Source of the DNA: an uncultured Bacilli bacterium
GTDB taxonomy: Bacteria; Bacillota_I; Bacilli_A; RF39; UBA660
Length of the DNA: 64,000 bases
Direction: 5' to 3'
Assembly: GCA_949425635.1 (NCBI GenBank)
Contig: CASPWD010000010.1
Span: 6,194 to 70,193, forward strand
Part shown: one piece after another, positions 13,901-32,187 of the stretch
Position numbering within the stretch: the first letter of the stretch is position 1
Layout: every line of letters begins with the position of its first letter
Notes under the pieces: model-generated
What the model was told of the DNA's origin: nothing
The model's database searches: none
What the model saw: only the letters and a program-made list of their open reading frames with translations
Translations under genes and position numbers: made by a program

Positions 13901-13906
13901 CTTCAT

Positions 13907-14000: not shown

Positions 14001-14007
14001 ATCTAAG

Positions 14008-14036
14008 ATTATAACAGAGAAGCTAGGTAAAGTCAA
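14008..14036 (-). promoter_or_regulatory. Sigma-A-type promoter of the rplU operon
   Basis: Minus strand reads TTGACT - 17 nt - TATAAT. Confidence 0.75.
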
Positions 14037-14073
14037 ATAATATCGTTAATTTTACCCGATATCTCCTATAAAG

Positions 14074-15288: not shown

Positions 15289-15315
15289 AGTTAAATCAAC
15301 CTTTCACAAATTAAA

Positions 15316-16515
15316 TTATATTTTTAAAACAAGTCCGCTACCAGGTAAAGTATTATTATCATTTTTATTAGTCTCTTCTATTTGTTTTTCACTTTCTTCA
15401 TCGTGTAATGCTAATTCAGATAATATTGTCTCATCTAACATATCGATGCTTTGATCATTTATACAGGCTTCGATTTCACTTTCTACTGCAGCTAAAGAAG
15501 TTAAAAACTCTTCATTCTCTCCAAATAAGATTGTAGTAGTCTCACCAATATTATTTTTTTTAGCAGTTAAATAAAGTTTTGCTAGACCGTACAAAATTTT
15601 CAAGTGCTTTTGATATCCGTCATATTGAGCCACTTCTATTTTTCTTATATAGTCTTCAATTTCAATAATGATTTCATCTTTTTCTTTAGTATCTTCTAAA
15701 CATTCTTCATCAAGTTCTTTTTCTACACTCTTTTCTAATGATTGTGAATCGATAATACTTTGGTTATCAGAGACAGCATGTTTTAGTTCTCTGTTAACTT
15801 TACTTATTGATACTAACTTAAAAACTTCATCTGTTAAAAATTCTTTAGCAATTAAGAAACCTACTTTAGTTACTATTTGCCATCCTAAGCCATATGGATA
15901 CCATCCTATCGTACACATGATAATTCCATCTAAAAGAAAGAGTGATAGAAGATTTGGTAGATATCTAGATAATTTTTTTCTTATATTGTCATAATTCTTA
16001 TATTTATTTTTAGCTAATATAGAAAGTTTGCTTTTATAGAAGTTAATAAATTCATCTAAGCTTGGTTGTTCTTTAAAAGATAATGGTGTTTTATTATAAT
16101 ATGTTGAATATAAAGTTTTGGTATGTTTTTCTTCAATAAGTAATTCATTATAGTTTGGTTGGAGAGATGGAAGTTCATTTAAGAAACTCATAAAGTCATT
16201 ATTTTCTTTAGCACTTTTGGTTAAAGTGAAGATGTCTTTATGGAATGTTTTTCCTACTCTATATTTAACAATTAGACTGGTTCCATCATAATAAGCAAAA
16301 TGCACTTTGCCATCCGTTAAAGCTGTAATAAGTTTTTGGCAGAAACTTTTAATTGATTCAACATAGGCATCTATACTATTTTGTTCTTTTTCTGGTTTTA
16401 GATAATGCTTTATAATATCATTTTTACAATCTAATAAGTATTCTCTTTCTTCTTGATAGGGATAATAATTTCCTTGTAAGAGTGTATCATTATATGTTTT
16501 GATTTTCTTTTTCAT
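15316..16515 (-). CDS. Hypothetical membrane protein (about 399 aa), paralogue A of a tandem pair
   Basis: Central hydrophobic hairpin LLSLFLLDGIIMCTIGWYPYGLGWQIVTKVGFLI. Contains YDGTSLIVKY and YDGYQKHLKILYGLAKLYLTAKK. I chose the start at MKKKIKTY (16515). Confidence 0.6.
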   Translation of the reverse strand: MKKKIKTYNDTLLQGNYYPYQEEREYLLDCKNDIIKHYLKPEKEQNSIDAYVESIKSFCQKLITALTDGKVHFAYYDGTSLIVKYRVGKTFHKDIFTLTKSAKENNDFMSFLNELPSLQPNYNELLIEEKHTKTLYSTYYNKTPLSFKEQPSLDEFINFYKSKLSILAKNKYKNYDNIRKKLSRYLPNLLSLFLLDGIIMCTIGWYPYGLGWQIVTKVGFLIAKEFLTDEVFKLVSISKVNRELKHAVSDNQSIIDSQSLEKSVEKELDEECLEDTKEKDEIIIEIEDYIRKIEVAQYDGYQKHLKILYGLAKLYLTAKKNNIGETTTILFGENEEFLTSLAAVESEIEACINDQSIDMLDETILSELALHDEESEKQIEETNKNDNNTLPGSGLVLKI

Positions 16516-16984
16516 AAATACCACCTTTATATTTAGGGACTTTCTCTAATTTATAATGATTATTTTTGTAGTAGGAATTTGGCTTTGAATATACATAATG
16601 CTCTGGCATTTCGTCATGTATCATATCTTTGAAATCCCAGTCCTCACAATTCATTATATACCCGCTTTTTAGAGCAACCTTCATTGAAGGTATATTCTTG
16701 CGATAAATTAGAAGATAAACAGTATCGTAGCTTGGATTTTCTGAACTTATCCAATCTGTTATTATACTGACAAATTGAGAACCATACCCCTTATGTTGAT
16801 ATTCTGCAAAGAGATAATACTCAATTGTTAAACGACCACATATAAAGATAGTAACGGCAAATCCTATTTCAATACCATTAACACGAACAATACAAACTTT
16901 TTCACGACTAAAAGACTGATTTCTTTCTTTTTTTATTTTAGCTAATTGTTCATCTGTTATATTTTTTATTACTTCATATTCCAT
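16490..16984 (-). CDS. GNAT-family N-acetyltransferase
   Basis: Acetyl-CoA motif QHKGYGSQFVSIITDW. RBS TAGGTGG. Its 3' end overlaps the next gene by 26 nt. Confidence 0.7.
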   Translation of the reverse strand: MEYEVIKNITDEQLAKIKKERNQSFSREKVCIVRVNGIEIGFAVTIFICGRLTIEYYLFAEYQHKGYGSQFVSIITDWISSENPSYDTVYLLIYRKNIPSMKVALKSGYIMNCEDWDFKDMIHDEMPEHYVYSKPNSYYKNNHYKLEKVPKYKGGIYEKENQNI

Positions 16985-17045
16985 AAAACCACCTAAAAAA
17001 TGTACTATTTATAATAGCACATTATTTTAATTAAGAGAATTATTT

Positions 17046-17825
17046 TTAATATCTTGTTTTCTTTATATAATCTTTCTCATTTATGTAACGATTGTTTTCT
17101 TTAAAATAGTAATATTTATCTATTCTTATTTTTTCGATGTCTGTAATATTATTTATTATTTTATTATAATAATTATTGTACATTATTCTTTCTAGGTAGA
17201 ATTTATTCATAACTAAATTAAATTCTTTTATTATTTCTAATAATTTTATAATAAGAAATATATATAAAATTATATCATTTAGTTTATAGATAAAATTATA
17301 TATTATAAAAATGATAAGACTTATTATTCCAGTTATAATCATTAAATAGTAACTTTTTTTGTAGGAAAAGAATTTACTATAAATACTAAATAGTAATTTA
17401 CTACCATCTAGGGGGATTATTGGTATTAAGTTAAAGATAATAATATTTTTATTATAGAGACTAAATATTTGATATGTAGTTGAAACAATTATATTTTTCT
17501 TGTATAAGAAAAAAAAGATTGATAAAAGGATCAGTTGGAAAATAATTCCACCAAGACTTATTAAAATATCTTTGTATATTCGTTCATGCAATTTTTTATT
17601 GACAGTGGTCATTCCACCATATGGATAAATCTTAACACTCTCAATTTCTATGTTAAAAATCGAAAAGAAAAAAACATGACCTAATTCATGAATGATGACA
17701 ATTAGAAGAATGATAAAAACATTTTTTATATAACCGGCTAATAATGCCAGAAGTATAAGAATATATGTACTTAAATCAATACTTATTTTCTTAAAAATAT
17801 TCATCATATGAGAGTTTTTTTCCAT
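17046..17825 (-). CDS. Site-2 (M50) intramembrane metalloprotease, SpoIVFB-like
   Basis: HELGHVFF (HExxH) lies within a TM segment, and NLIPIIPLDGSKL provides the LDG motif. Same genomic position as Bacillus spoIVFB. The start is uncertain (alternatives at 17807 and 17804). Confidence 0.75.
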   Translation of the reverse strand: MEKNSHMMNIFKKISIDLSTYILILLALLAGYIKNVFIILLIVIIHELGHVFFFSIFNIEIESVKIYPYGGMTTVNKKLHERIYKDILISLGGIIFQLILLSIFFFLYKKNIIVSTTYQIFSLYNKNIIIFNLIPIIPLDGSKLLFSIYSKFFSYKKSYYLMIITGIISLIIFIIYNFIYKLNDIILYIFLIIKLLEIIKEFNLVMNKFYLERIMYNNYYNKIINNITDIEKIRIDKYYYFKENNRYINEKDYIKKTRY

Positions 17826-18384
17826 CTTTTAGAATTGATAGTAATAACTTGTCATTATTGGTAGTTCCTAGAATATTACCTTTACTTACATAGTCATAAA
17901 GACTATAGTCATTATTTATGATGTTACTATACCATATATCAACACCATCATTACCTTGAACTATTATGGTATTTTTTAAATCGCCTTTATCTCCTATATA
18001 GACTATTATTCCAGATGCTAAAAAAGTGACTGGATAATCAAGACCAACTTCTATTTCGTATGAACCATTCATTTCTGTTCTTGGCATTGAACTTAAATCA
18101 TTAGATGTATTTGAAACTTTAATTGTGTTCTCTTCTTTTGGCTCGCTATTATTAAAATTACCAATATATTTTTGATATACTTTATTAATACTATTAAAGC
18201 TTATATTATGTTCTAGGAAGTTTTTCGTGTAATATTCACGAGCATTACTATTAAAGTTGGTAATTATTAATGTGCTTAGGACAATTATAGTCGATATTAA
18301 TAGCTTACTAATGGCAATACTATAGGAAGGATTTATTTTTTTATTTTCTTTGAGTTTCTTTTTATAATATTTACTCTCTTTCAT
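17791..18384 (-). CDS. Membrane-anchored degenerate LytM/M23-domain protein, SpoIVFA-like
   Basis: N-terminal TM segment. The C-terminal region GIIVYIGDKGDLKNTIIVQGNDGVDIWYSN...SKGNILGT has an M23-like fold signature, but Q and N replace the usual His ligands. Confidence 0.5.
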   Translation of the reverse strand: MKESKYYKKKLKENKKINPSYSIAISKLLISTIIVLSTLIITNFNSNAREYYTKNFLEHNISFNSINKVYQKYIGNFNNSEPKEENTIKVSNTSNDLSSMPRTEMNGSYEIEVGLDYPVTFLASGIIVYIGDKGDLKNTIIVQGNDGVDIWYSNIINNDYSLYDYVSKGNILGTTNNDKLLLSILKDGKKLSYDEYF

Positions 18385-18415
18385 ATTATCACCATTTAAT
18401 AATATGATAATTTAA

Positions 18416-18781
18416 TTAATTTAATAACACATCTGATAATTTTAAGTAAATAATTTGAAGTATCATACTAATAAAAAAACTTGTTAAATAGTTAATAGAA
18501 TGGCCGAATAGAAAATATGTTAAATTGAAATAAATTAGATATACAACAATATTCTTAAAAAATATATATTTTTTAGAAATTTTTAGTATTTTTAAAACTA
18601 TATAAATACTCAAAAAAATTAAAACATTAAAAAATGGAGCTTTGAATATTAGATCAAGTATTAAACCGATTAATATTACTCTAAGTACGTTATTCTTATC
18701 AAGCTCAGCAATAACAAAGTAAGTGTTTATAGGTAAAAAGGAAACAATTAAAAAGTCTAAGACAAATCCGATGTATATCAT
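18416..18781 (-). CDS. mreD: Rod shape-determining protein MreD
   Basis: 121-aa polytopic membrane protein that overlaps the mreC stop by 4 nt. Confidence 0.65.
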   Translation of the reverse strand: MIYIGFVLDFLIVSFLPINTYFVIAELDKNNVLRVILIGLILDLIFKAPFFNVLIFLSIYIVLKILKISKKYIFFKNIVVYLIYFNLTYFLFGHSINYLTSFFISMILQIIYLKLSDVLLN

Positions 18782-19428
18782 TTTGCACCTACTATAACAG
18801 CTACGTAATTTAAATTATGATTATCTATTAATTTTATTTTAGCTGTTTGACCTAAATTCTCGTTATCAAAGCTAATACTTTCTATCTCTCCTATATAAAT
18901 ATTTTCTGGAAGACCACTATAGTTAGAAGTATATACTTTGTCTCCTTCTTTTAAATCACTATATTTATTTAACATAGTAATTTTACCAGCACTTAAGTTA
19001 CCATATGTGTCATTTATCTTAACCGAAATGTTATAGTCACTACTTGAGAGCTTTATATAAGATTTATTACGTTCTACTTTATATACAATGCCAATTAGAC
19101 CTTCACTATTTAAGACAGCATCTCCTTCTTTTATTTGATTATCAGATCCTAAATCTATAACTATTTCATTATAGAATTCATGAATATTTCTTATTATTAC
19201 TTTCCCTATTATATAATCTTCTTTGATAGTTTTTAAATTTTCAATACTATCCAATTCATCTTGAAGTAGTTTATTTTGTACTTTAAGTGTCTCTAATTCT
19301 ACTAAGTCATAATCGTTATATTTTAAATAACTAATAATATAACCACTGCCTATTATTAGACCGACAATAGAAATAAAAATAATTAAATTAATGAGTAATT
19401 TGTTTTTACGATGCAAATAGATCACCAT
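18778..19428 (-). CDS. mreC: Rod shape-determining protein MreC
   Basis: N-terminal TM, coiled coil LKVQNKLLQDELDSIENL, then a beta-rich domain (GDAVLNSEGLIGIVYKV, GDKVYTS). Start taken at MVIYLHRKNK. Confidence 0.8.
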   Translation of the reverse strand: MVIYLHRKNKLLINLIIFISIVGLIIGSGYIISYLKYNDYDLVELETLKVQNKLLQDELDSIENLKTIKEDYIIGKVIIRNIHEFYNEIVIDLGSDNQIKEGDAVLNSEGLIGIVYKVERNKSYIKLSSSDYNISVKINDTYGNLSAGKITMLNKYSDLKEGDKVYTSNYSGLPENIYIGEIESISFDNENLGQTAKIKLIDNHNLNYVAVIVGAK

Positions 19429-20083
19429 ATCTTTCTTTAATACTATAATAATTATTATTACCAATTATGATGTGATCTAGTACTTTTATTTCTAACATTT
19501 CTCCTAATTTTACAAGTTCTTGAGTTAAATATATGTCTGATGTGCTAGGATTTACAGAACCAGCAGGATGATTGTGAACAAGGATTATTTTGGTAGCATT
19601 ACACTTTACTGCTTCTCTAAATATATCACGTGGTGTTATTGAACTTTTGTTGACTGTTCCAATGAAAAGTATTTTTTTCATTATTACATTATTTAAAGTG
19701 TCTAAATATATGGTCATAAATTGTTCTTGGAGTTTATTGCTCATTTCATAAGAGGCAATATTATAAGCATCATTGGCATTTCTAATTTTGGACTTATCAT
19801 TTTTCTCGCTTAGAATTCTTTTTCCTAATTCAATAGATGCAAGTAAAGTAATTGCTTTTACTTCACCTATTCCTTTTATACATTTTAGTGTGTTATAGTT
19901 GGTATCTTTTAAATCTTTTAATGAAATTTCTTTTAATAGATTTAAGCTAACTTCTTTAACTGATTTGCTTTTTGTACCTGTTCTTAAGAGAATGCTTATT
20001 AATTCTTCATCGCTTAAGGCTTCGGCTCCATATTTTTTAAATCGTTCACGAGGACGTGATGTTTCTGGTAGTTCTTTTATCAT
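19406..20083 (-). CDS. radC: RadC-family (JAMM-motif) protein
   Basis: MIKELPETSRPRERF, an HhH segment IKGIGEVKA, and the JAMM motif ILVHNHPAGSVNPSTSD. Confidence 0.9.
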   Translation of the reverse strand: MIKELPETSRPRERFKKYGAEALSDEELISILLRTGTKSKSVKEVSLNLLKEISLKDLKDTNYNTLKCIKGIGEVKAITLLASIELGKRILSEKNDKSKIRNANDAYNIASYEMSNKLQEQFMTIYLDTLNNVIMKKILFIGTVNKSSITPRDIFREAVKCNATKIILVHNHPAGSVNPSTSDIYLTQELVKLGEMLEIKVLDHIIIGNNNYYSIKERYGDLFAS

Positions 20084-20096
20084 GTAACTCATTATT

Positions 20097-20525
20097 TTAA
20101 TGCAACTCCTTAAATTTTTCTAGGATTTCACTATTTAAAACCACATAAGTATCACTGCTACTTTTATTTAATAACTCTTCGATTGATGAAGTTTGTTCAA
20201 TAAATTCTTTCTTCGCAGGTATTTGCTTTAAGTAATAATTGAGTCCTATTTCAGAATAGTGTTTTTTTAACTTGCTTATTACTTCTTGATTGTGAATTAT
20301 AGCTATGTAAACTCTAAATATGTCTTCGTCTTTGATGACTATACCATTATTACGGTCAGCCACTTTAAGAGCATTATCATAATTAGTGAAAGCTCCAATT
20401 TGAAAGGCACTTACAATCGTAGTATCACTTGGACTAGCTTTTACGACTATTTTATTAAATAAATAATAAGCTATTCCACCACCTAAAGAAATCGCACATA
20501 AAATAACTATTAAAGTTTTTTTCAT
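20097..20525 (-). CDS. Membrane-anchored SPOR-like domain protein
   Basis: N-terminal TM. FQIGAFTNYDNALKVA...FRVYIAIIHNQEVISKLK resembles a SPOR peptidoglycan-binding repeat. Confidence 0.4.
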   Translation of the reverse strand: MKKTLIVILCAISLGGGIAYYLFNKIVVKASPSDTTIVSAFQIGAFTNYDNALKVADRNNGIVIKDEDIFRVYIAIIHNQEVISKLKKHYSEIGLNYYLKQIPAKKEFIEQTSSIEELLNKSSSDTYVVLNSEILEKFKELH

Positions 20526-20678
20526 ATCATCACCAAATAGATATTATCATTTTGAAAAGTTATATAATGTCGATTTTATATAAAATTGTAATCCCTCTAC
20601 TTATAATTATTATCTATTGACTCCCAATTTCCTTTATTTTTTGCTAAAAAAAGAAGACTTTTTTGTCTTCTTGAAAAC

Positions 20679-21194
20679 TTAATTATTTTTAAATTGAAAT
20701 AGGATACCTAAAACAGCAATAATTACAACTATAATTAATACAACATTTGATGATAACGAAATTAAAGCTGGTAGATATGACTTTATAATAGATGCTCCTG
20801 CAATACTACTTACAACTATTAAAATAGGTTTTATGAAGAAAGTTGATAAAGCTCCTATTAGTAGTGAAATACCACCTTGTACTATTAAAGCAACACCACT
20901 TTCTAAGCCTGTAATGTAAGGACCTATTGTCTTAAAAGTCAAATAAGATACTGCAATAAATAAAGCTAATTTTTCTAATTTAAAGCCAATACTTCCTACA
21001 ATAAAGCCAACTATAATTTCGACTATAATTAGCATTTGATTATTATCAATAAAATAACTACCTAGGTATTTAGCTAAAGCAGCACCTATGACAAACCATA
21101 CTAAGGTAATAAGGATTTTTTGAATCTTAAATCCTCCAAAACACATAACTAAACCGATTAGAATTGCTATGATAGCTGATATTTCTGGGCTCAT
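20679..21194 (-). CDS. Polytopic membrane protein (about 5 TM), function unknown
   Basis: Hydrophobic throughout. It starts 2 nt after the ATPase stop, suggesting co-transcription. Confidence 0.55.
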   Translation of the reverse strand: MSPEISAIIAILIGLVMCFGGFKIQKILITLVWFVIGAALAKYLGSYFIDNNQMLIIVEIIVGFIVGSIGFKLEKLALFIAVSYLTFKTIGPYITGLESGVALIVQGGISLLIGALSTFFIKPILIVVSSIAGASIIKSYLPALISLSSNVVLIIVVIIAVLGILFQFKNN

Positions 21195-21195
21195 A

Positions 21196-23799
21196 CTAAA
21201 CCTTCTTTCTTAACTTATAAATTAGTTTATAAATTTCATAAACAACAATTATAATAAATGATAATAATAATATTTTAGCAACGGTTACCATTGGTAATGG
21301 TGTTACCTTTAAGAACATAGCTGTAACTGGAATTTCAGCTAATATTATTTGAAGCAATATTGATCCTATTACTGTTACAATAACAAATGGATTATCAAGT
21401 AATGATTCTTTGAAAACAGTTCTTTTTTCGCTTCGACAATTTAGAACATTAATATTTTGAATGAATACCATAAGCATCATAATTACAGCTCTTGCAGTAA
21501 CAATATCAGTTCCTTTATCCATCATAAATTTCCATGTTCCAAATACTACTGCACTTATAGCAATTCCTAAGATACTAACTTCTATCATTAAGTCTTTAGA
21601 GAATAATGATTCTTTTGTATCTCGTGGTTTTTCTTTCATAATATTATCTTCGGCTTTTTCAAACGATAATGCTACATCTTGTAAGCCGTCTGTTACAATG
21701 TTTAGCCATAATAATTGAATTGCAACTAATGGGATATCGTATCCAAAGGCAATTGATAGTAAGAAGAAGCAAACCTCTGCAAATCCACATCCTAGTAAGA
21801 AAAGCGTAATTTTACGAATATTACTATAAGCTGTACGACCTTCTTTAACACCTGAAACAATTGATGTGAAATTATCATCTGTAACTATCATGGAAGCAGT
21901 TTCTTTAGCAACGTCTGTTCCGCTACCCATAGCTATACCAATGTTAGCAGCACGAATAGCTGGAGCATCATTTACACCATCTCCTGTTACAGCAACAAAC
22001 TCACCTTGTCTTTTAAAGGATTCGACAATATCTAATTTATCCATTGGAGTTACACGTGAAAATACTCTAATACAACTAACGAATTTATCGAATTCTTTTT
22101 CACCTAAATTACGATATTTTTCTATATCTTTACCAGTAGCAACTTCATTTTTATTAGCACATAAACCTAAATCTTTAGCAATTGCGAAGGCAGTTAGAGG
22201 GTGATCGCCTGTTACCATAACTACTTTAATTCCAGCATTGCTACACTCTTTTAAAGAATCTTTAACTTCTTTTCTTATTGGGTCAATAAATGCTACCATT
22301 CCAATGAAATCTAGGTTCTTAATATCTGTTTTATTTGTTCCTTTTACTTTACCATCAGCTATAGCAATTACTCTGTAGCCACGACTTGTTAAGTCTTCAT
22401 TTTGTTCGAAATATAATTTGTTTTCTTCTGAGAATTCCATTACTTTTTCTAAAGAGCCTTTTACAGTACAATAAGTTTCTCCATCACGCTCATAGAAAAC
22501 AGCTGAGTATTGGTTTTCTGATTCATAAGGAATACTTTCAATAACTTTTGGTTTATTTTTAATTTTTAATTTTTCTGCTAAACTAAGGAATGCAATATCG
22601 ATTGAATCACCAAATGATTCCCATTTATCTTTTTTCTTTTCTAAATGTGCTTCATTATTTATTGCCCCTAGCATCGCAATATATTCAGCATTTTTTATAT
22701 CTGCTCCATTTGATGGAACTACTTTTCCATCCCCATTATAGCCAGTTCCTGTTATTTCATAAATGCTACCATCTTTTAAAATAATTTCTTTGGCTGTTTG
22801 CTCATTTACTGTTAATGTTCCTGTTTTATCTGAAGCAATTACTGTGCAACTACCAAGAGACTCTACTGCATTTAATTTTTTTACAATAACATTTTTCTTT
22901 GCCATTCTTTTTGATGCAATAGTTAAAGCCATTGTTAATGCTAAAGGTAGGCCTTCTGGCATAGCTGAAACAGAAAGAGCTATAACACATAAGAATATTT
23001 CGCTTATAGGATATCCTTTTACTAATAATACTATTGTTGTTATTATGGCAACAATTACAATAATAATACTTATTTGTTTTGAAAATTTTTCTATTCTAAT
23101 AGTTAGTGGAGATTTTTCTTCTTTAGTATTAGTAACCTTATCAGCAATACGACCTATTTCAGTATTTATTGCTGTTGCAACAACAACTGCTTTGGCACGA
23201 CCAGTTGTAACTGAAGTTCCAGCATAAATCATATTTTTGCGATCTGCTAAAGAGATGTCTTCTTCTAATGTATTGCTATTTTTATAGACATTTAAACTCT
23301 CCCCTGTTAATGCGGATTCGTCAACTTGGAAGTTATGACATTCGATAATACGTGCGTCGGCACTTATTTTGTCACCACTTTCAAGAACTAGTATGTCTCC
23401 TACAACAACATCACTAGAATCGATAATTATTTCTTTACCATCTCTAATAACTTTAGACGTTGCTTTTATCATATTTACTAATGCATCCGCATCACGTCTT
23501 GCTTTCCACTCTTCATATGTACCCATTACTACATCTACTAATATAATAAATATTAAAGCTATGGCGTCTATTACTTCTCCAGCAATAAAGGATAAAATAA
23601 CAGTTACTACTAAGATAATTTCAATAGGATTTTCGAATTGCGAAATAAAAAGTTTTAGAATACTATCTTGTTTCTTTTTAGGTAGTTCGTTTTTTCCATA
23701 TTTTTCTAAATTATTTTTTGCTTGCTCTGTACTTAATCCTTTTGTAGTAGATTCAAAATATTTTAAGACATCGTCTATGTCTTTGTTATAAAATTTCAT
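21196..23799 (-). CDS. P-type cation-transporting ATPase (P2, Ca2+/PMCA-SERCA-like)
   Basis: DKTGTLT, TGES, PEGLP, MVTGDH and TGDGVNDAPA motifs are all present. Start taken at MKFYNKDIDDV. Confidence 0.9.
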   Translation of the reverse strand: MKFYNKDIDDVLKYFESTTKGLSTEQAKNNLEKYGKNELPKKKQDSILKLFISQFENPIEIILVVTVILSFIAGEVIDAIALIFIILVDVVMGTYEEWKARRDADALVNMIKATSKVIRDGKEIIIDSSDVVVGDILVLESGDKISADARIIECHNFQVDESALTGESLNVYKNSNTLEEDISLADRKNMIYAGTSVTTGRAKAVVVATAINTEIGRIADKVTNTKEEKSPLTIRIEKFSKQISIIIVIVAIITTIVLLVKGYPISEIFLCVIALSVSAMPEGLPLALTMALTIASKRMAKKNVIVKKLNAVESLGSCTVIASDKTGTLTVNEQTAKEIILKDGSIYEITGTGYNGDGKVVPSNGADIKNAEYIAMLGAINNEAHLEKKKDKWESFGDSIDIAFLSLAEKLKIKNKPKVIESIPYESENQYSAVFYERDGETYCTVKGSLEKVMEFSEENKLYFEQNEDLTSRGYRVIAIADGKVKGTNKTDIKNLDFIGMVAFIDPIRKEVKDSLKECSNAGIKVVMVTGDHPLTAFAIAKDLGLCANKNEVATGKDIEKYRNLGEKEFDKFVSCIRVFSRVTPMDKLDIVESFKRQGEFVAVTGDGVNDAPAIRAANIGIAMGSGTDVAKETASMIVTDDNFTSIVSGVKEGRTAYSNIRKITLFLLGCGFAEVCFFLLSIAFGYDIPLVAIQLLWLNIVTDGLQDVALSFEKAEDNIMKEKPRDTKESLFSKDLMIEVSILGIAISAVVFGTWKFMMDKGTDIVTARAVIMMLMVFIQNINVLNCRSEKRTVFKESLLDNPFVIVTVIGSILLQIILAEIPVTAMFLKVTPLPMVTVAKILLLSFIIIVVYEIYKLIYKLRKKV

Positions 23800-23889: not shown

Positions 23890-23923
23890 TTTTACAAAGA
23901 AAAAAGCCTTATTATATGGCTTT
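23890..23923 (-). terminator. Rho-independent terminator ending the surface-protein operon
   Basis: Stem aaagcc/ggcttt, then TTTTTTCTTTG on the minus strand. Confidence 0.55.
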
Positions 23924-23930
23924 CTTAAAT

Positions 23931-24025: not shown

Positions 24026-24679
24026 TTAAATAACTTTTCTTTTTTTATTAACAGATAGATAAAATAGTATCAGTACAAATACAATAGTTAAACTTATTAG
24101 AAGTATTTTGATGTACTCACTTTGACTATCTCCTGTATCAGGATTTATTGGTATAACTAGGTCGTTATATTCTGCAACAAATTCCCAATCTACATAAGAA
24201 TATTCATCATTCTCTGTTACATCGTATTTTTCAATTAACTTTGTATTTACGACTATCTCGCCATTCATTTTTGATTTGTATTCACCTATATAAATCGTGT
24301 TTGTTAAATCTAAATTATCATGGCTGTAATCTAATCCATCCGCAAATCCACTATATAGAAGTTCACCATTCATTGTTATTTCCATCTTTATATTCTTTAG
24401 TAAATCTGCAGCAAGTTCACTTTGTTCTCTATTCTTAACTCTCATGTATAATTTGTAATCATAGTTGCTATCATTTTCAATAGTTAATCGATCTTCATAT
24501 GATGAACCAGGTACCATATCTACATGTTTCATAAAGTATTCGTCGTCATACTTAGAGCTATCATAGTATAATCTATCTCCACTACCTGTGAAGTACAGTT
24601 TATTTTCTCTAGCACTAACTATATTCAAACTAGTAAACATTATTAGTACTAGTAATAAAGATTTTAATATTTTCTTCAT
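24026..24679 (-). CDS. TasA/camelysin-like beta-rich secreted protein with C-terminal NPDTG sortase-type sorting signal
   Basis: Sec signal ...LNIVSA|RENK. VPGSSYEDRLTIENDSNYDYKLYMRV resembles the TasA PGD...N.G strand pattern. The C-terminus is NPDTG-DSQSEYIK-(19 hydrophobic residues)-NKKRKVI. Confidence 0.6.
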   Translation of the reverse strand: MKKILKSLLLVLIMFTSLNIVSARENKLYFTGSGDRLYYDSSKYDDEYFMKHVDMVPGSSYEDRLTIENDSNYDYKLYMRVKNREQSELAADLLKNIKMEITMNGELLYSGFADGLDYSHDNLDLTNTIYIGEYKSKMNGEIVVNTKLIEKYDVTENDEYSYVDWEFVAEYNDLVIPINPDTGDSQSEYIKILLISLTIVFVLILFYLSVNKKRKVI

Positions 24680-24710
24680 AGTAAACCTCCTTTATTAGGA
24701 ATTTTCATTA

Positions 24711-25445
24711 TTAAGCAACTGGATCTATTTCAACATCTGTTACTTTGAAGAAATCTTTATAAGCATCATATTGAACAGTAGAAACTGTAATCTTTAATTC
24801 GTATTCTAATCCAGAATATCCATTGCTATCAGAACTACAAACTTCTTTTTCAGATACTTTAGTTGCTCCTGCTGGGATTTCTTCTAATGAATCAACATAA
24901 GTTACTTTTCCGTCTTCACTTGTCTTATAAGAATAAGTAGTTTTACAAAGATTATTAGTGTTAGCTAATTCATTGTTTAATGTTACTGATTCTAAGTGTT
25001 GAATTGATTCTCCTTTTGCTAAAGCTTTATTGTAGTAGTAAACATTGTCTTTAATAATCCAATTAGCAGCATATTCCTTGTTTAAATTTTTAATTACAAC
25101 ATCTTCGTCTTTACCATCAACTTTTATTTTACCAGTTTTTTCAACTTTTGCGCCTCTTGAACCATCAGCATTGATTTCATACCAAGATTCTTCCATTTCA
25201 ATACGTACTGCAACAGGTACATTACCAGTGTTTGTTACATGTATTGCTTTATCAACTGTTGATCCAGGTTTCCAATCTTCTCCATCTTCTGGATTAAAGA
25301 ACTCTTCAATTTCAGTTTTGTAAACATCTGTTTTGAAAATATTTGGGAATTCTTTAACACTAGTGAAGTATGCAATTGTTCCTCCTACTACTCCTACAAT
25401 AGCAAGTAAAGCTATTGCAACTATTGGCATTTTTTTGTTTTTCAT
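24711..25445 (-). CDS. TasA/CalY/BsaA-like exported protein with SipW-cognate-type signal peptide
   Basis: The N-terminus MKNKKMPIVAIALLAIVGVVGGTIAYFTSVKEFPNIF resembles TasA ...GGGTWAAFND. It also has KPGSTVDKAIHVTNTGNVPVAVRIEMEESW. Confidence 0.65.
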   Translation of the reverse strand: MKNKKMPIVAIALLAIVGVVGGTIAYFTSVKEFPNIFKTDVYKTEIEEFFNPEDGEDWKPGSTVDKAIHVTNTGNVPVAVRIEMEESWYEINADGSRGAKVEKTGKIKVDGKDEDVVIKNLNKEYAANWIIKDNVYYYNKALAKGESIQHLESVTLNNELANTNNLCKTTYSYKTSEDGKVTYVDSLEEIPAGATKVSEKEVCSSDSNGYSGLEYELKITVSTVQYDAYKDFFKVTDVEIDPVA

Positions 25446-25546
25446 TATTCTCTACTTCCTTCCTTTTTCTATCTATATCAAAATCTAACACTACCATATG
25501 CTAAACTTTAATATCAAAATTAATATCAACCAAAACCCTTATACTT

Positions 25547-26194
25547 TTATTTTAAAGTCCATTCTACGTTGTTATCTTTATCTATACTTACAGATTCCAC
25601 AGAGTCTCCCCACAATGATTTTATTGCTTTTGGAGTAGCTTGAACTGCTTCAAAATTAAAATCTAATTCATACATTGCTTGTAAATAATCATCAAACTTA
25701 GGAGATGTCTTAACATCATCATTTAAATAAATTGATTCTAATATTTGAACACGTTCATTAGAACTACCTGCTTCTGTTAGTACTCTTTTATAGTAATACC
25801 AACCATCGTTACCTAATTCGAACTCTTTTAGCCATGCTTCTGTCCAACCTTTATCAACAACATCAATGTATTCATCATTGATTTTTAATCTATTACTTAA
25901 GAAAATAATTGATTCATCTTCCTGTATTAGCTTCCACATCTCATTGTAAGAAACTCTTAATACAACAGGTGTTTCATCTTTATTAACAATACTAACTTGT
26001 TTTACTCCCCAAGTTCCATTAAACACTTCTTCTATTTGAACATCGTAGTTAGCAACATTAAACTTATTATTAAAAGCATAACTATTACTAAAGAATGCCC
26101 AAGTAAAACCAATTACAAAAACAAGAGAAAGAGCAATTATAAGTAATATTTTTTTGCTTTTTATTTTACGTAATAAATTATCATATTTATTCAT
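25547..26194 (-). CDS. TasA/CalY/BsaA-like exported protein with SipW-cognate-type signal peptide (paralogue)
   Basis: N-terminus ...LSLVFVIGFTWAFFSNSYAFNNKF, plus KQVSIVNKDETPVVLRVSYNEMW. Confidence 0.65.
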   Translation of the reverse strand: MNKYDNLLRKIKSKKILLIIALSLVFVIGFTWAFFSNSYAFNNKFNVANYDVQIEEVFNGTWGVKQVSIVNKDETPVVLRVSYNEMWKLIQEDESIIFLSNRLKINDEYIDVVDKGWTEAWLKEFELGNDGWYYYKRVLTEAGSSNERVQILESIYLNDDVKTSPKFDDYLQAMYELDFNFEAVQATPKAIKSLWGDSVESVSIDKDNNVEWTLK

Positions 26195-26265
26195 GAAATT
26201 CTCCTTTTACGAATTTTATTTTAAAAAACATTTATCTATCTTAAAGACTTTTATTAAAATACTAT

Positions 26266-29200
26266 TTATTCATTAGGTGGAGGTGGAATTGGATCAGAAT
26301 TCGTAATATAAGTCATTACTAGTATAATGGTATTATTGTCAGTTTTAATAACAGAACAATTATAGTTTGTATAATTTAATGGCGTAATCGTCCAACTATA
26401 ATCAGTATCTAACCCCTCCCAGTTATATGACCATTTATTTTCAGCACTTAAATCTACTGTGTCATAAATTTCTTCATTTTTCAACAAAACTATGGTAAAA
26501 ATCGCTGGCCTTTTACTTTCATTTCCTTTATCATCCCATAAAACTTTTACATTTATTTTATCATTTTGTGTTTGTTCACAGCTATCACCTGTGGAAGGTA
26601 AACATTCACCAGGCAAAAATTCAATAACAAATATATCTCCATCATGTACTTCTAATCCTGGAACTGGTGTTATGGTATCCCACTCCTTTTTGAAATTGTA
26701 ACCAATTAAAGGTGCAACTTTTGGAATTCTATCTTCTGTCAGATACGCTTTACCACTTTTATTTAAATTTCCTTCTTCATCATATAATGGTATATCTATT
26801 GATATTTCATAAGACTCCTGATAGTCGCTTGGATATACATTCTCTCCAAAAAAGAAATATCCATTTATTACTTTAAAATAAATTCTTACGGTTTCTGCTG
26901 ATGGCTCATCAGGATCTGGTATGTCTTCACCATAAGTATTAGTTATTGTAACAGTAGTACCTGATTGGGTAATAGATGAAGTATAACCATCAGGGACATC
27001 TATCTCACCAACTACCCAAGTATTTCTATTGTTAAGATTTTTCCATGTATAAGACCACTTATTATCGTTATTTAATGTAATTGGAGAACCATAAGGCTCA
27101 TCATCTCTATAAAGCTGAACACTAACACTAGCAGGTCTTTCAGCCTCAGAATCACCAATCCACACTTTTTGTATTGTTAATGAAGTATAAGATGGACCTC
27201 CTCCTGGATTATCTGGTCTTCCATTAGTAACATCTTTCACCTCATTAGAAACTCTTCCATCAGAATGATAATAACCTTTTCTATGATGTTTATTAGTAAA
27301 TTCTACAGAATATTTTTCACCTAGCTTAACTTCAATACCCTCTCCATTATCACTAATATCTCCAGTAACGCTTTCTAAAGTATATTCCTGAGGTACTACC
27401 TCTTTAATGTAATAAGTATCATCTGGTTCTAAATATAATACTTGCTCTTCATTGTTAGTTAAATTTAACCAACTATCATAACCATTATCACTTGTTATAT
27501 GAAATTGGAAAACTTTATCAGTACTATCTTCGTTTAATACCTTTTTACTAATTTTTAATTCTGGCCATATATCAAATGAAGCGGTTGCTTTATATTTTTC
27601 TTTAGCTTCTTCGCTAGTATCTAAATCATTATTATCAGCAGTAGCACCTAATATTTCAACCATATTAACAATGGTTCCTATATCATTTTCTGCTACTTCA
27701 TAAGTAGCTTTAACAATAACACTACCTTTAGCAGGAATGCTTGGTATTTCTACTACATGAGTAGACCTAATATTATAAGTATCATTATTATTTATGAATT
27801 GAGCATTAACATTGTGTTCCTTGACAATAACATTTTTTATTTCATAATTTTCGGAATTTGTAACAATAATATTATACTCAACAATGTCACCTTTTTTATA
27901 GTAATCTTTTTTGTTGATAATTTCTTTACTGATAGATGGAGCAAATATTTTTCTTACTATTTTCCATTCTCCATAAACAATTACATTTTCTTCTGGCATT
28001 ACAAAATTATCTTCTTTATACCATCCTTGGAAATGATATCCATTACTATATTCAGTAGCTGGAATATCTTCTACTATAGGTAATTTTACTTTTTCACCTG
28101 GAGCATATGTATTATCTTTATTATTTAATTCATTTAGTATTTCTCTGTAATTAGGAGGTCTTACACCATCTTGGAAGGCGTAGGTAACTTTATATTTGAT
28201 TTTTTCCCATCTTCCTACTATTTCAACATTTTTGGATGGCATTATAAAGTCTTTATCACTAGAAATATTTACATCAGTTGTTTCCCATCCTAGGAACGTA
28301 TATCCTTTAAATACATCACCAGCATTCATACTATCCACTTTTACAGTTTCATTAGCGTAATAGCTACTTGTAAGAGGTAAAACATATCCACTAGGCTTAT
28401 CATCACCATCTATCCTATATGCCACTTCATATTTAGGTAATTCAGTAAAATAGCCTTCTAGTACGACTTCATCAGATTCATTTTCAAATGAAGGCATCGT
28501 AAATTTACCATTAGTTATTTGTAGACTTAGTGGGTCAACTATTTTCCAACCACTAAAGGTATAACCCTCTACCTTTGGCTCGAAGGCGACGTTAACTACG
28601 CTATTAGGAGCATATTCTTGAGTATCAGGAGCACTAACATTTGGAGGAACTATGGTACCATCAACTGGATTGTTTACTAATCTATATCTAACTTTATTAA
28701 CAGATGTTTTCTTTGTTTGAATCCAAGCGTGAGTCATATTAGATTTAGCCATCTGAGTACCTTCCCAAGCTGTTGCGGTATTATAAAAGTCTTTTTTATA
28801 CCCTTCAATAGTCTTTGGAGTCTTAGTTATAATTCCAACATCTAACTTACAGCCTGCTGTTAGATTTTTGATTTTAAAAGTTATTTTTCTTGTTTCTTCA
28901 TCATAATGTAGGCCATGATTATTTTTAGGGTCTGTTGAACTTCCAGAATCATTAACAACATAACCATTACACTTACCTGCAACACTGCTATCTCGTTTTG
29001 TGGCTCCAAGTACTTGGTCATCATCACCTACAAAATTAAATTTTTGAAATTCTAAGCCGTCTGGCAGAATATCTTCAACATAAATGTAACCACTCTCTAC
29101 TTTAATAATTTTTGGTTTACCATCTGTATTTAATAATTCGCTAGACTTATCACTATTTCTATCTACACCATCATAAGAAACTGATAAAGTATAAGCTAGT

Positions 29201-29346
29201 TCGGAATCCAAATCTACTTGTAAATCAAAAATATTTTCTAATTTTTCCATTTTTGTAAACTGTAATAAGATAAATGTTGTTAAAGCAACTAAGACAAGAC
29301 AAATAGCTAATACAGATTTATTTGTTTTTCTTTTATGTTTTTTCAA
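26266..29346 (-). CDS. Large adhesin: Flg_new repeats, DUF11-like and SpaA-like modules, two Cna-B-type modules
   Basis: N-terminal TM. Flg_new modules EGYTFSGWKI, KGYTFLGWET, NGYHFQGWYK. DUF11-like KKGDIVEYNIIVTNSENYEIKNVIVKEH. Cna-B-like QKVWIGDSEAERPASVSVQLY and VKVLWDDKGNESKRPAIFTIVLL. No C-terminal LPXTG. Confidence 0.7.
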   Translation of the reverse strand: MKKHKRKTNKSVLAICLVLVALTTFILLQFTKMEKLENIFDLQVDLDSELAYTLSVSYDGVDRNSDKSSELLNTDGKPKIIKVESGYIYVEDILPDGLEFQKFNFVGDDDQVLGATKRDSSVAGKCNGYVVNDSGSSTDPKNNHGLHYDEETRKITFKIKNLTAGCKLDVGIITKTPKTIEGYKKDFYNTATAWEGTQMAKSNMTHAWIQTKKTSVNKVRYRLVNNPVDGTIVPPNVSAPDTQEYAPNSVVNVAFEPKVEGYTFSGWKIVDPLSLQITNGKFTMPSFENESDEVVLEGYFTELPKYEVAYRIDGDDKPSGYVLPLTSSYYANETVKVDSMNAGDVFKGYTFLGWETTDVNISSDKDFIMPSKNVEIVGRWEKIKYKVTYAFQDGVRPPNYREILNELNNKDNTYAPGEKVKLPIVEDIPATEYSNGYHFQGWYKEDNFVMPEENVIVYGEWKIVRKIFAPSISKEIINKKDYYKKGDIVEYNIIVTNSENYEIKNVIVKEHNVNAQFINNNDTYNIRSTHVVEIPSIPAKGSVIVKATYEVAENDIGTIVNMVEILGATADNNDLDTSEEAKEKYKATASFDIWPELKISKKVLNEDSTDKVFQFHITSDNGYDSWLNLTNNEEQVLYLEPDDTYYIKEVVPQEYTLESVTGDISDNGEGIEVKLGEKYSVEFTNKHHRKGYYHSDGRVSNEVKDVTNGRPDNPGGGPSYTSLTIQKVWIGDSEAERPASVSVQLYRDDEPYGSPITLNNDNKWSYTWKNLNNRNTWVVGEIDVPDGYTSSITQSGTTVTITNTYGEDIPDPDEPSAETVRIYFKVINGYFFFGENVYPSDYQESYEISIDIPLYDEEGNLNKSGKAYLTEDRIPKVAPLIGYNFKKEWDTITPVPGLEVHDGDIFVIEFLPGECLPSTGDSCEQTQNDKINVKVLWDDKGNESKRPAIFTIVLLKNEEIYDTVDLSAENKWSYNWEGLDTDYSWTITPLNYTNYNCSVIKTDNNTIILVMTYITNSDPIPPPPNE

Positions 29347-29380
29347 TTACAGTTCACCTCCTTAAATATTTATATAACTA

Positions 29381-32074
29381 TTAACTAATTCTATATGGAT
29401 TGATTTGACTACCGTCACCACTTGATGCAACTATACCTGGTTTTAGCGATATAACTGGACGAACTCCATTTTTACTAGTGTCTGTTGTGTTTATCGAAGG
29501 ATAGCTGAAATGTGGACCATTGTAATCTGTTTTTACATTAATGTAATGCACATCTTCACTCGTAAAGTGAGAAGGTGACATAAGCCAAAACATATTTTCA
29601 TATCCTAAATATGACTCAGTAGAGTTATATTTATAAGCTCCCGCTAGCCATGCCTCATCTATAGTTAATAGACCAACTTTATATTTTGACTTACCATTTC
29701 CATTTTCACTGCTTACAGTAAACCTATCATTTGGATTTTCACATATTAAAGAAGGTCTTTTTGTTGTAATATCGGACCAACCTTTATAATAAGGACTAAA
29801 ACGTAAATATCTTGATGAATAGTTTGCACCTCTTAAATCAGCTGTAGTAGTTCCACCATTTGGATTCCATCCACCTAAATCAAAGATAGCTCTATCATTA
29901 CACCATACCGTATCTTCTAGGTAGTCATCATAACTAAGCATTCCATCTGGACCAGCAAACCATGTATTTTCTATATAATCTTTTATTGTTGAGTCAGTCT
30001 TGTTTTCAAACATTTCTTCTAGAGCCTTTTCTATTGTTTTTCCATCTTTTAGCTCTATATAGTGATAACTTCCAACAGTATCGTAAACATAATTAACTAT
30101 TGTACAAGTATTAGAACTAGAAAAGCATGTATAGTGTGTATATGATTTATCGTCTGATGAAGAAAGTTCTCGGGCATCATTCAATGTATATTTGCCATTA
30201 GAATACGTCACAGATGTTCCGTATAAGAACTTTTCACTTGAATTTATTTCTTTTGTTTTGAATTCATATCTTGTACCATACATATAACCAACATCTGCTG
30301 GAGAATTGTAGTTATTATTATATACTGAAGATAGTTCATTAGAATAACCATAGCATGTACCATCATCAAACGGAAGACCATTATATATTAATTTTGTTCC
30401 ACCTGTTTCAGTAGTTCTCACTATCTGCCAACATTTATTTGCAAATAAGACATTATTGTTATCAACAGCACCACGATAATAGAATATTGGCTCTCCTTGA
30501 TATGTTTCTGTTTTTTCTTCCGTTCCAGCCATTATATATAAACCTTTTCCATTTGTAGCAGATGCTCCAGAATTAAATTTAATTCCAGCTGAATTATCTA
30601 CATAATCACTTGCTTCATTATCCAGATATCCTCTTTCGCCATTAAATGGCATTACATCTGCAGGTGTATATTCTTCAGCTGTCATTGTTTTAGAAATTGA
30701 AACTTGAGTCCAAATTGCTTTGATTGTTACGTTATGACTAGGCATTATAAAAGTGTCATCTGTTACTTTAGTTATTCCAGTAGCTGATTCGTCTGATATT
30801 TCCCATCCTTTAAATAAATAACCAGAACACTTATTGCTTAAATCATAATCTTTCATTGTTACTGTATCAAAAACAAGATAATTTTCACTATTAGGATTTG
30901 TGATACTACAACCATTTGGAGTGTTAGTATCATAGATTACTTTATATGCACCTTTTAATTTTGGTGTTTTAGGTGACTCAACTGGATCTTTTTCTGGTTC
31001 ATCAGGTAGTTTTGTAGTTACATCTTCTTTTCTATTTGTTGGGAAAAGTGATGTATCAGTTATTTCGACACCATCTTTTAACTTAAGATCTATCGTCATA
31101 GTCGCACTAGCTCCTGTACGATAGTTAATTCCTAAGTCCCATGTAACTTTTTCCATTCCATCTTCAATACTAAGACTTGCGCTACCAATTGAAACGTTGA
31201 CATTTTCAATTGTTCCAAGTTCGAAATATCTTTCATCTATAAAATCATTAATAACAAATTTATCGTAGCTTTGAGTTAATACTACTGCATCAAATAGGAC
31301 ATTACCTAAATTGTCAACATATGCTGAATATTGGTTATCACTTATTTCTTTTAATTCATTTATTATGTCACTACCCATTTCGTATTGAATAGCATTGATA
31401 GTTAAATAAGGATAATTATCCTTTAAGACGGCATGTTCTACAACTTGATATGGTGTTTCTTCACAAGGATAACCATCTGATAAGAATAGTGCTAATAAAT
31501 CCGTATTATCTCTAGGACTATAATTTTCTAGAATGGTTCCAGTTTTTCTTAAAGCATCCGCGTAATTAGTTGTTCCGTTAGCACCTAATTGATTAATTTT
31601 GCTAGCGACTTCTATGAAATCATCCGTAAATTCAGACAAAATTGTAGCATTTGTATCAAAAGAAATTAAGGCAACTCTGTTTTGTTTGTTTGATAAAATA
31701 TTGTAAGCAAGTTCTTTCGCATCTGACTTTACTTTTTCAATTTTATCGCCTACCATACTACCAGAAACATCTAATATTAAAATAACATCTTTATTGGCAT
31801 TCACTTCTTTTTCTATTGTACTTACATCAAACTGAACTCTAGCTGTTCTCTCTCCTGTCCAATCGGCACTTTTGTCGATGTGCCAACTACCAGGTTCTTG
31901 GTTTTTCCAACCACTTGATTCAAAATCAACTTGTTTAATTTCTTCGTCAATATTGGCACTAAATGTAAAAGTTAATAGTACACAAAATATAATCGTGATT
32001 ATTCCTAAAATTATTTTGTTTCTTCTTGGCTTTAAAAGACACTCAAAAAAGTTATAAACTTTGTTATTTCTCAT
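29381..32074 (-). CDS. vWA-domain surface protein (897 aa)
   Basis: N-terminal TM ILGIITIIFCVLLTFTFSAN. MIDAS DVILILDVSGSM...TNYADAL...LSDG. One Flg_new repeat (SGYLFKGWEI). C-terminal FWLMSP...GVRPVISLKPG domain. Confidence 0.8.
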   Translation of the reverse strand: MRNNKVYNFFECLLKPRRNKIILGIITIIFCVLLTFTFSANIDEEIKQVDFESSGWKNQEPGSWHIDKSADWTGERTARVQFDVSTIEKEVNANKDVILILDVSGSMVGDKIEKVKSDAKELAYNILSNKQNRVALISFDTNATILSEFTDDFIEVASKINQLGANGTTNYADALRKTGTILENYSPRDNTDLLALFLSDGYPCEETPYQVVEHAVLKDNYPYLTINAIQYEMGSDIINELKEISDNQYSAYVDNLGNVLFDAVVLTQSYDKFVINDFIDERYFELGTIENVNVSIGSASLSIEDGMEKVTWDLGINYRTGASATMTIDLKLKDGVEITDTSLFPTNRKEDVTTKLPDEPEKDPVESPKTPKLKGAYKVIYDTNTPNGCSITNPNSENYLVFDTVTMKDYDLSNKCSGYLFKGWEISDESATGITKVTDDTFIMPSHNVTIKAIWTQVSISKTMTAEEYTPADVMPFNGERGYLDNEASDYVDNSAGIKFNSGASATNGKGLYIMAGTEEKTETYQGEPIFYYRGAVDNNNVLFANKCWQIVRTTETGGTKLIYNGLPFDDGTCYGYSNELSSVYNNNYNSPADVGYMYGTRYEFKTKEINSSEKFLYGTSVTYSNGKYTLNDARELSSSDDKSYTHYTCFSSSNTCTIVNYVYDTVGSYHYIELKDGKTIEKALEEMFENKTDSTIKDYIENTWFAGPDGMLSYDDYLEDTVWCNDRAIFDLGGWNPNGGTTTADLRGANYSSRYLRFSPYYKGWSDITTKRPSLICENPNDRFTVSSENGNGKSKYKVGLLTIDEAWLAGAYKYNSTESYLGYENMFWLMSPSHFTSEDVHYINVKTDYNGPHFSYPSINTTDTSKNGVRPVISLKPGIVASSGDGSQINPYRIS

Positions 32075-32124: not shown

Positions 32125-32187
<63 letters not shown>

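Follow-up and report, generated by a model that had tools for sequence, protein, structure and literature searches.

The operon and its gene products

We analysed a stretch of 64,000 nucleotides (nt) from an uncultured Bacilli bacterium of the gut with a low GC content (GenBank assembly GCA_949425635.1, contig CASPWD010000010.1, positions 6,194 to 70,193; hereafter the window), in which a first reading made from the sequence alone had proposed an operon for a cell-surface fibre. Its five co-directional genes lie on the minus strand, with exactly the coordinates and sizes that this sequence-only reading had given. In the direction of transcription, P1 (window 29381-32074) encodes a protein of 897 amino acids (aa) with a von Willebrand factor A (vWA) domain and its metal ion-dependent adhesion site (MIDAS), and P2 (26266-29346, TTG start) encodes a protein of 1026 aa in which a core of Flg_new, SHIRT, and DUF11-like domains is followed by a Cna_B extension. 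These genes are followed by P3 (25547-26194; 215 aa) and P4 (24711-25445; 244 aa, with a SipW-type signal), which encode 2 subunits of the BsaA family, and by P5 (24026-24679; 217 aa), the proposed sortase-anchored base. The distances between consecutive genes from P1 to P5 are 34, 71, 101, and 31 nt. As laid out below, the operon probably specifies a fibre of the BsaA/TasA type that is tethered to the cell wall through P5.

P3 and P4 as subunits of the BsaA family

By the evidence of curated sequence models, P3 and P4 are subunits of the BsaA/TasA family. Both pass the curated cut-off of 60 bits of TIGR04090, the model for BsaA family SipW-dependent biofilm matrix proteins, with 122.9 bits for P4 and 64.7 bits for P3, and the same model finds no match in P1, P2, or P5. 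The SipW-cognate signal that had been read into both N-termini is recognised in P4 by TIGR04088, the model of SipW-type signals (23.9 bits; cut-off 19 bits); P3 has its place in the class through TIGR04090, but its own signal scores 13.5 bits and stays under the cut-off, while its orthologue in the related locus L004 reaches 23.6 bits. Peptidase_M73 (PF12389, cut-off 22.5 bits) matches P4 marginally and at residues 8-96 only (23.7 bits), remains below threshold for P3 (18.4 bits), and has no match in P5. The P3 and P4 families are homologous to each other (hhalign probability 100%), and a search with the P4-family profile against PDB sequences returned nothing meaningful.

In the BsaA fibre of Clostridium perfringens, residues 28-38 of one monomer enter the next one with V33 and F37 in its core, and an E56-catalysed isopeptide bond between N35 and K74 locks the contact; each mutation of these residues abolishes the heat- and sodium dodecyl sulfate-resistant ladders (PMC11580942). 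P3 and P4 share a comparable pattern, in which a hydrophobic-x-Asn-x-Phe motif just past the signal is followed by a glutamate 13 residues after the asparagine and by a lysine in the first core strand. The candidate donor strand of P4 is F33-x-N35-x-F37 with E48 and K66, and N35, F37, E48, and K66 are invariant in the P4 family. For P3 it is F41-x-N43-x-F45 with E56 and K65; here N43, F45, and K65 are invariant and E56 is found in at least 90% of the family. This N/E(D)/K set is also retained in 125 of 127 wider relatives and in 18 of 20 of the fusion proteins described below. N35 and F37 of P4 have the same numbering as in published BsaA, and the spacing from the glutamate to the lysine is 18 residues in both. 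Because motif, numbering, and spacing of P4 match those of BsaA, we propose donor-strand exchange with an isopeptide lock for P3 and P4 as well. The notion of the sequence-only reading that TasA-family fibres polymerise non-covalently is outdated for BsaA with its intermolecular lock (PMC11580942), and P3 and P4 keep the matching residues. Several paralogues per operon have been taken to suggest heteropolymers (PMC11580942), and P3 and P4 possibly form one.

P5 as the putative wall anchor

P5 begins with an ordinary signal peptide (...VSA|RENKLYF) and ends in a tripartite signal of NPDTG, about 24 hydrophobic residues, and KKRKVI, which is the make-up of a sortase substrate. That P5 carries a sorting signal of NPDTG, membrane span, and KKRK had been proposed before and stands firmly, with P180 and T182 of the motif invariant in 36 homologues. 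The 58 homologues that we collected (90% clustering) all measure about 210-235 aa and share the mature N-terminus ENKLYFT.... An exhaustive profile search extended the family to 1241 representative clusters at E <= 1e-3 (117 at E <= 1e-30), across which xPxTG predominates. Its members are unnamed or called "hypothetical protein" in their sources and the family has no Pfam or NCBIfam name; P5 itself matches no domain family in profile scans. Exact look-ups of the window's P5 and of P0001 found no record, and a tblastn search of P4 and P5 against a plasmid collection gave no match.

What ties this family to fibre subunits is a set of natural fusions. Among the top 150 representatives of the P5 family, 21 proteins of 430-670 aa consist of a BsaA-like domain with a SipW-type leader followed by the P5 domain; 7 of them were scanned with TIGR04090 (122-182 bits), and the other 14 were called by profiles built from P3- and P4-like alignments. 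A motif search detected the PxTG signal in 18 of the 21, usually as PKTGD. We regard these fusions as the strongest evidence for physical cooperation of P5 with the neighbouring fibre subunit; because in them the P5 domain shares one chain with a BsaA-like domain and, in most, a sorting signal, a tether to the wall via P5 is the best reading. Since it is to a P4-type domain that P5 is fused, one may further speculate that P3 forms the shaft and that P4 serves at its base or as an adaptor.

In 2 other proteins, P0195 and P0226, a P5-like domain and a membrane span are followed by a sortase-like domain within a single open reading frame. They may be genuine fusions, or else overlapping P5 and sortase genes that were called as one.

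The fold of P5 was approached with 2 confident structure models, of the full length and of the mature domain (predicted local distance difference test scores of 80 and 85, predicted template-modeling [TM] score of 0.80). Both show a beta-sandwich, in line with the beta-rich protein seen in the sequence-only reading, but the TasA-like character that this reading also ascribed to P5 is not demonstrated. Foldseek with either model gave only generic beta-sandwich matches and none at E <= 1e-3. The best specific neighbours were filaments of the TasA superfamily, all at E > 1e-3, namely 8AUR (TM 0.33), 7UEG (TM 0.42), and 7PNB (TM 0.36). In hhalign, the P5 family aligned to the P4 family with a probability of 17% and to the P3 family with one of 15%, and a search of its profile against PDB sequences yielded nothing meaningful.

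A conserved cluster with sipW and sortase in relatives

The gene order was compared across 16 related loci, of which L004 was found by exact look-up and L005-L019 by a scan of species-representative genomes; all come from gut or rumen metagenome-assembled genomes (MAGs) labelled as uncultured Bacilli, Erysipelotrichaceae, or Clostridium sp. The order P2-P3-sipW-P4-P5 is present in 12 of the 16 loci, and a P1-type vWA gene lies upstream of P2 in 8. A P2 homologue stands directly ahead of P3 in 15 loci, and P5 follows directly after P4 in 12 and is within the cluster in 15. A SipW-type gene is found in or beside the cluster in 14 of the 16 loci, and in 4 a sortase gene overlaps the end of P5. 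The embedded peptidase is a signal peptidase I of the ER/archaeal type (TIGR02228, 109 bits; cut-off 51.85), with the Bacillus SipW model as second best match, and the sortase after P5 is recognised by PF04203 (71.5 bits) and falls below every class-specific cut-off. By its conserved order, the gene set of the operon is a real conserved module, the usual form of which carries both enzymes that the proposed fibre needs.

A second copy and probable mosaic cassettes

The cluster is present at least twice. An exact look-up of a neighbouring 1199-aa protein led us to contig Ga0081174_1000053 (JGI 3300006153), which is 100% identical to window 1-15135 and runs 8.5 kb past the left edge. At this edge the window holds the start of a P1 paralogue (window 1-1257, minus strand) that is cut by the border and continues in L021 at 13879-22047. 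This second cluster is complete, with a vWA protein of 1075 aa followed by P2-like (921 aa), P3-like (203 aa), P4-like (222 aa), and P5-like (221 aa) proteins; there is no sipW between its P3- and P4-like genes and no sortase. All 10 genes of the two copies are intact.

The copies differ from gene to gene: P5 is 95% identical between them (dS 0.11, dN/dS 0.17), whereas P1-P4 are only 37-45% identical, with a dN/dS of about 0.6 for P4. This contrast is suggestive of an anchor subject to gene conversion or strong constraint and of exposed parts that diversify.

It also bears on an alternative in which the genes share an operon and no structure, so that P3 and P4 would form a released matrix polymer while P5, P1, and P2 would act on their own at the surface or as secreted proteins, without ever joining the fibre. 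C. perfringens strain 13 offers a precedent, since its BsaA polymers are mainly extracellular or membrane-bound and require neither BsaB, BsaC, nor SrtB; besides, neither hhalign nor Foldseek provides sequence or fold evidence that links P5 directly to P3 and P4, and P1 is absent from 8 of the 16 related loci. However, P5 domains are fused to BsaA-like domains in the 21 representatives described above, P5 keeps its place directly behind P4 and within the cluster across most related loci, and near-identical anchors next to P1-P4 proteins that differ at 55-63% of their positions point to a shared conserved partner. We therefore consider this explanation unlikely, though the likeliest of the alternatives, and favour a common structure that is tethered through P5.

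Metagenome contigs of sister JGI samples (L001, L002, L020, L026, and L035 from three such samples, and L003) repeatedly have one of their ends within the P3-P5 region, and the neighbours of their near-identical P3-P4-P5 segments vary. In L002, for example, a P1-like C-terminus directly precedes P3, and different genes follow P5 in L001. This pattern is expected for several recombining copies and points to multi-copy mosaic cassettes, so that short-read joins across P3-P5, including that of the window, need some caution.

The 1199-aa protein just upstream of the second cluster (window 1536-5135, minus strand) contains 8 repeats of the Flg_new (Listeria-Bacteroides) type (251 bits) and is probably another surface protein; a terminator-like hairpin lies between its gene and the cluster.

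P1 and P2, the large accessory proteins

The vWA domain of P1 had been correctly recognised from the sequence alone; it spans residues 96-248 (VWA_2 50.6 bits, VWA 46.5 bits) and has DVSGS as its MIDAS motif of the form DxSxS. P1 additionally contains one Flg_new_2 repeat and, like P2, starts with a hydrophobic segment. By analogy with the vWA protein BsaC of C. perfringens, we infer a BsaC-like accessory or adhesin role for P1.

The C-terminal ~430 aa of P1 (residues ~470-897; window 29381-30670) end in a conserved G(V/L)RP(V/A)ISLK...GDGS..NPY motif and form a module that is common to P1 homologues, including the one at L002 3-1472. This module has no sequence match in Pfam, NCBIfam, or the PDB. 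The RPV motif alone also ends the P2-like protein of the second cluster (L021).

For P2, the earlier assignment of modules was right about the Flg_new repeats (Flg_new and Flg_new_2) and the two Cna_B stretches (73.5 bits), to which a SHIRT domain is added; the DUF11/DUF7507-like domain, however, stays just under its cut-off (DUF11 23.2 versus 24.6 bits), and the supposed SpaA-like module was matched by no SpaA model. The Cna_B part resembles the B region of the Staphylococcus aureus collagen adhesin. A conserved core of about 700 aa comprises an N-terminal domain, the Flg_new repeats, SHIRT, and the DUF11/DUF7507-like domain; Cna_B modules are absent from all 5 P2 homologues tested, and the Cna_B part is a C-terminal add-on of this particular P2 copy outside the conserved module. 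Past its predicted cleavage site, P2 also has the conserved motif L-x-N-x-V, which is at most a lead towards a capping donor strand.

Pilus adhesins typically contain Cna_B and vWA domains, and P5 has a sorting signal, which would also fit a pilus of the classical kind that is polymerised by sortase, where the Cna-B protein would form the shaft or the tip and the vWA protein would be the adhesin at the tip. This candidate was rejected because P1-P4 have no sorting signals at all. Moreover, the window contains no sortase, the Cna_B modules are missing from the tested P2 homologues, and the conserved partner enzyme in relatives is SipW, so that we regard a pilus of this kind as very improbable and retain the BsaA/TasA-type fibre.

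Putative signals around and within the operon

Upstream of P1, two strong terminator-like hairpins on the minus strand (32246-32217 and 32187-32152) with stems of 13 and 16 pairs, each followed by a T run, set the operon apart from the ArsP_2 permease gene that precedes it; the pair has a folding energy of -36.9 kcal/mol (z -9.05). The putative promoter-like element (32128-32158, minus strand) consists of a -35-like TTGATA and -10-like TATTAT/TATAAT sequences. The sequence-only reading had noted a promoter-like element here, but promoter-like matches, of which the one at 32158-32131 is an example, are no commoner than chance (65 in 12 kb versus 74.9 expected from shuffles), and a match is therefore not evidence by itself.

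Between the -35-like TTGATA and the -10-like TATAAT of this element lies a (TA)n microsatellite of about 13 units (32130-32155). The spacer now measures 19 nt and would be 17 nt with one TA unit less. Judging from this arrangement, the fibre operon could have a promoter that is phase-variable through strand slippage in the repeat. The single other copy that we found (L035, from the same sample) is identical in repeat length, and no such TA repeat lies upstream of the second cluster copy.

The terminator previously noted 3' of P5 is present as a hairpin with a U run (minus strand, about 23893-23926), but it is weak (-9.7 kcal/mol, z -1.67); similarity to a relative's contig, L001, stops at this hairpin. 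Inside the operon, the P3-P4 spacer (25446-25546, minus strand), which is the site of sipW in relatives, holds a 17-pair AU-rich hairpin without a U run (-15.4 kcal/mol, z -3.23). The 3' part of this spacer ahead of P4, TTTTGATATAGATAGAAAAAGGAAGGAAG, is conserved in the matching spacers of L021 and L003. The element may serve as an internal promoter or as a leader, or it may act on mRNA stability and thereby set the ratio of the subunits. Within and around the operon the GC content is uniform at 24-33%, and there is thus no sign of recent import.

Other genes in the window

Two other genes of the window deserve mention. A PolC-type DNA polymerase III alpha subunit (window 58513-63957, minus strand) has 1814 aa and thus exceeds the usual length by several hundred residues; a stretch of about 340 residues from its PHP match to its polymerase-core match is unassigned, and no intein domain was found at E <= 0.01. 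A protein of 1115 aa (window 8152-11499, minus strand) has an unusual architecture with several Sigma70_r4/r4_2 and other helix-turn-helix matches at about residues 541-733 and no other family match.

A model for the fibre and its processing

Taken together, we think it rather probable that the operon encodes a BsaA/TasA-type surface fibre with P5 as its base in the cell wall, P1 and P2 as accessory adhesins, and the processing enzymes supplied in trans. P3 and P4 would leave the cell through the Sec pathway with their SipW-type signals, to be cleaved by a SipW (ER/archaeal-type signal peptidase) encoded elsewhere in the genome. The freed N-terminal strand (about residues 26-38 of P4 and 34-46 of P3) would then be inserted, by donor-strand exchange, into the beta-sandwich of the adjacent subunit and would probably be locked there by a glutamate-catalysed Asn-Lys isopeptide bond, for which N35-K66 with E48 in P4 and N43-K65 with E56 in P3 are the candidates, modelled on N35-K74 with E56 of BsaA. 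P5 would be exported by its ordinary signal peptide and joined to peptidoglycan via NPDTG by a sortase that is likewise encoded elsewhere, so that the P5 base could tether the fibre to the wall. P1 with its vWA/MIDAS domain and P2 with the Cna-B stalk of this copy would serve as accessory adhesins without a wall anchor of their own. The working model of the sequence-only reading is thus largely upheld by the family to which P3 and P4 belong, by the gene order that relatives share together with sipW and sortase, and by the P5 fusions, except that a TasA-like fold of P5 is not shown and that Cna-B is specific to this copy.

Several observations weigh against this model. A six-frame search of the window and the adjoining 8.5 kb on the left (72.5 kb, with both cluster copies) detected neither a SipW-type peptidase nor a sortase, with best E-values of 0.34 and 0.54 compared to 1e-75 and 1e-111 for positive controls; the absence of both genes from the 64 kb, as first read from the sequence, is thereby borne out and extended. 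The correspondence of the N/E/K residues of P3 and P4 with BsaA is one of motif and spacing and not of an alignment with BsaA; among the best 120 of 232 hits, none was recognisable as the C. perfringens protein. Neither hhalign nor Foldseek with the P5 models supports a TasA-like P5 or its binding to P3 and P4. In a test of P2 as a SipW substrate, none of the N-termini of 10 P2 homologues matched TIGR04088. Finally, the BsaA fibres of C. perfringens strain 13 are for the most part either set free or bound to the membrane, and its BsaC is a free secreted protein (PMC7395162, PMC11580942).

The missing enzymes could also mean that the operon is a decaying or silent remnant that has lost sipW and sortase, so that its subunits are neither processed nor anchored. 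In favour of this view, both copies lack the two genes and none turned up in the 72.5 kb, while 14 of the 16 relatives have sipW in or beside the cluster. Against it, the 10 open reading frames are intact; P5, P3, and P4 are under purifying selection, with dN/dS values of 0.17-0.27, 0.36-0.37, and 0.56-0.61, respectively; and the SipW-type signal, the N/E/K residues, and the sorting signal have all been kept. The sipW-less arrangement recurs in L002 and L003, contigs from other samples, and is therefore no accident of one assembly. Furthermore, a sortase acting in trans is already the rule, with 12 of the 16 loci lacking an adjacent one. All this makes a remnant quite improbable, and we return to a functional fibre. 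The P3 and P4 signals look alike here and in sipW-containing loci, and we infer from this that SipW and sortase act in trans, or else that the system is incomplete.

A separate locus with sipW followed by P0187, a 431-aa fusion of P4- and P5-type domains with an INPDTGD signal, was found in L025 (9492-11296) and L026 (847-2651). The locus occurs in many samples (13 contigs), one of which, JGI 3300006217, contains near-identical copies of the window's operon as well. It could not be assigned to the window's own genome, since it shares no identical DNA with the window and has a lower GC content (25-26% versus 28%). It is possible that this locus is the source of SipW in trans for the organism of the window or a close relative.

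Relation to known fibre and pilus systems

The closest known system is the bsa operon of C. perfringens with the order sipW-bsaA-bsaB-bsaC-bsaRSD and srtB adjacent (PMC7395162), in which BsaC is a 70-kDa vWA protein (PMC7395162; PMC11580942) and one of two bsaB homologues has an LPXTG motif in ATCC 13124 and most strains (PMC11580942). The same authors have raised an SrtB-dependent anchoring of BsaA fibres via LPXTG-BsaB as an idea that they themselves call "speculative" (PMC11580942). More generally, BsaA/TasA genes are often accompanied by LPxTG proteins, SpaA or fibronectin domains, signal peptidases, and sortases (preprint, 2024-25; PMC11580942). The sequence-only reading was not aware of a characterised system with the composition of the operon, but there is a precedent, since bsa already joins sipW, BsaA, in most strains an LPXTG-BsaB, the vWA protein BsaC, and an adjacent sortase (PMC7395162; PMC11580942). 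Both operons combine two BsaA-family paralogues with a vWA protein, have a sortase-signal protein alongside the fibre genes, and encode SipW-dependent subunits (TIGR04090) with the candidate Asn/Glu/Lys set kept. Unlike in bsa, the vWA gene comes first here, and next to it is the gene of a large protein of the Flg_new/DUF11-like (plus Cna-B) type, which is absent from bsa as described; a protein of its own, 217 aa long and from an unnamed family, is the anchor and has NPxTG instead of LPXTG; and neither sipW, a sortase, nor a two-component system is found in the operon and its flanks, while the cluster is present at least twice.

With tapA-sipW-tasA of Bacillus subtilis (PDB 8AUR), the relatives' order P3-sipW-P4 and the SipW-type signals are shared, as would be assembly by donor-strand exchange (PMC9674648), and P4 matches Peptidase_M73 marginally. 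TasA, however, has no N-E-K set and polymerises non-covalently (PMC11580942), and in B. subtilis there are no vWA or Cna-B partners and TapA, which is no sortase substrate, anchors and nucleates the fibre. Pili of the SpaA type resemble the operon in their C-terminal sorting-signal anchor, vWA and Cna_B adhesin domains, and isopeptide chemistry. They differ in that only 1 of the 5 proteins has a sorting signal here, that subunits would be joined by N-terminal strand insertion and not by transpeptidation, that the hallmark enzyme is SipW, and that no pilin-specific sortase would be needed for polymerisation. The archaeal TasA-like filaments, i.e., the bundling pili of Pyrobaculum (7UEG) and the 0406 threads of Sulfolobus (7PNB), also assemble by donor strands, and the latter have inter-subunit isopeptide bonds (bioRxiv 10.1101/2022.04.26.489512). 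They gave the best superpositions with the P5 models, at TM values below significance, but have neither a sortase anchor nor adhesin partners.

The operon is therefore an uncharacterised variant of the C. perfringens bsa system and not a new type of machine. What is different here is the widespread unnamed P5 anchor module, the conserved P2 adhesin, the gene order, the two copies without sipW, sortase, or regulator, and the conserved anchor next to divergent subunits. A bolder interpretation, which we put forward tentatively and with some doubt, is a hybrid third route in which a SipW-processed, isopeptide-locked donor-strand polymer would be held covalently on peptidoglycan by a sortase-substrate base of the P5 family, either stand-alone or fused, with vWA and Flg_new/Cna-B proteins as cap or decoration. 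It would come as several cassettes with divergent subunits (37-45% identity) and a homogeneous anchor (95%), the expression of which might be switched by the (TA)n repeat.

How fibres of the TasA/BsaA type are attached to the cell is unsettled, with TapA doing so in B. subtilis, and the cluster type described here together with the P5 family provides a concrete and testable hypothesis of anchoring. That the cluster exists in multiple copies, in which the subunits diverge and the anchor is conserved, hints at variation of the cell surface. The cluster is common in uncultured gut Bacilli, as seen from mouse, human, rabbit, and rumen MAGs, and may be a main organelle of adhesion or biofilm formation in these organisms.

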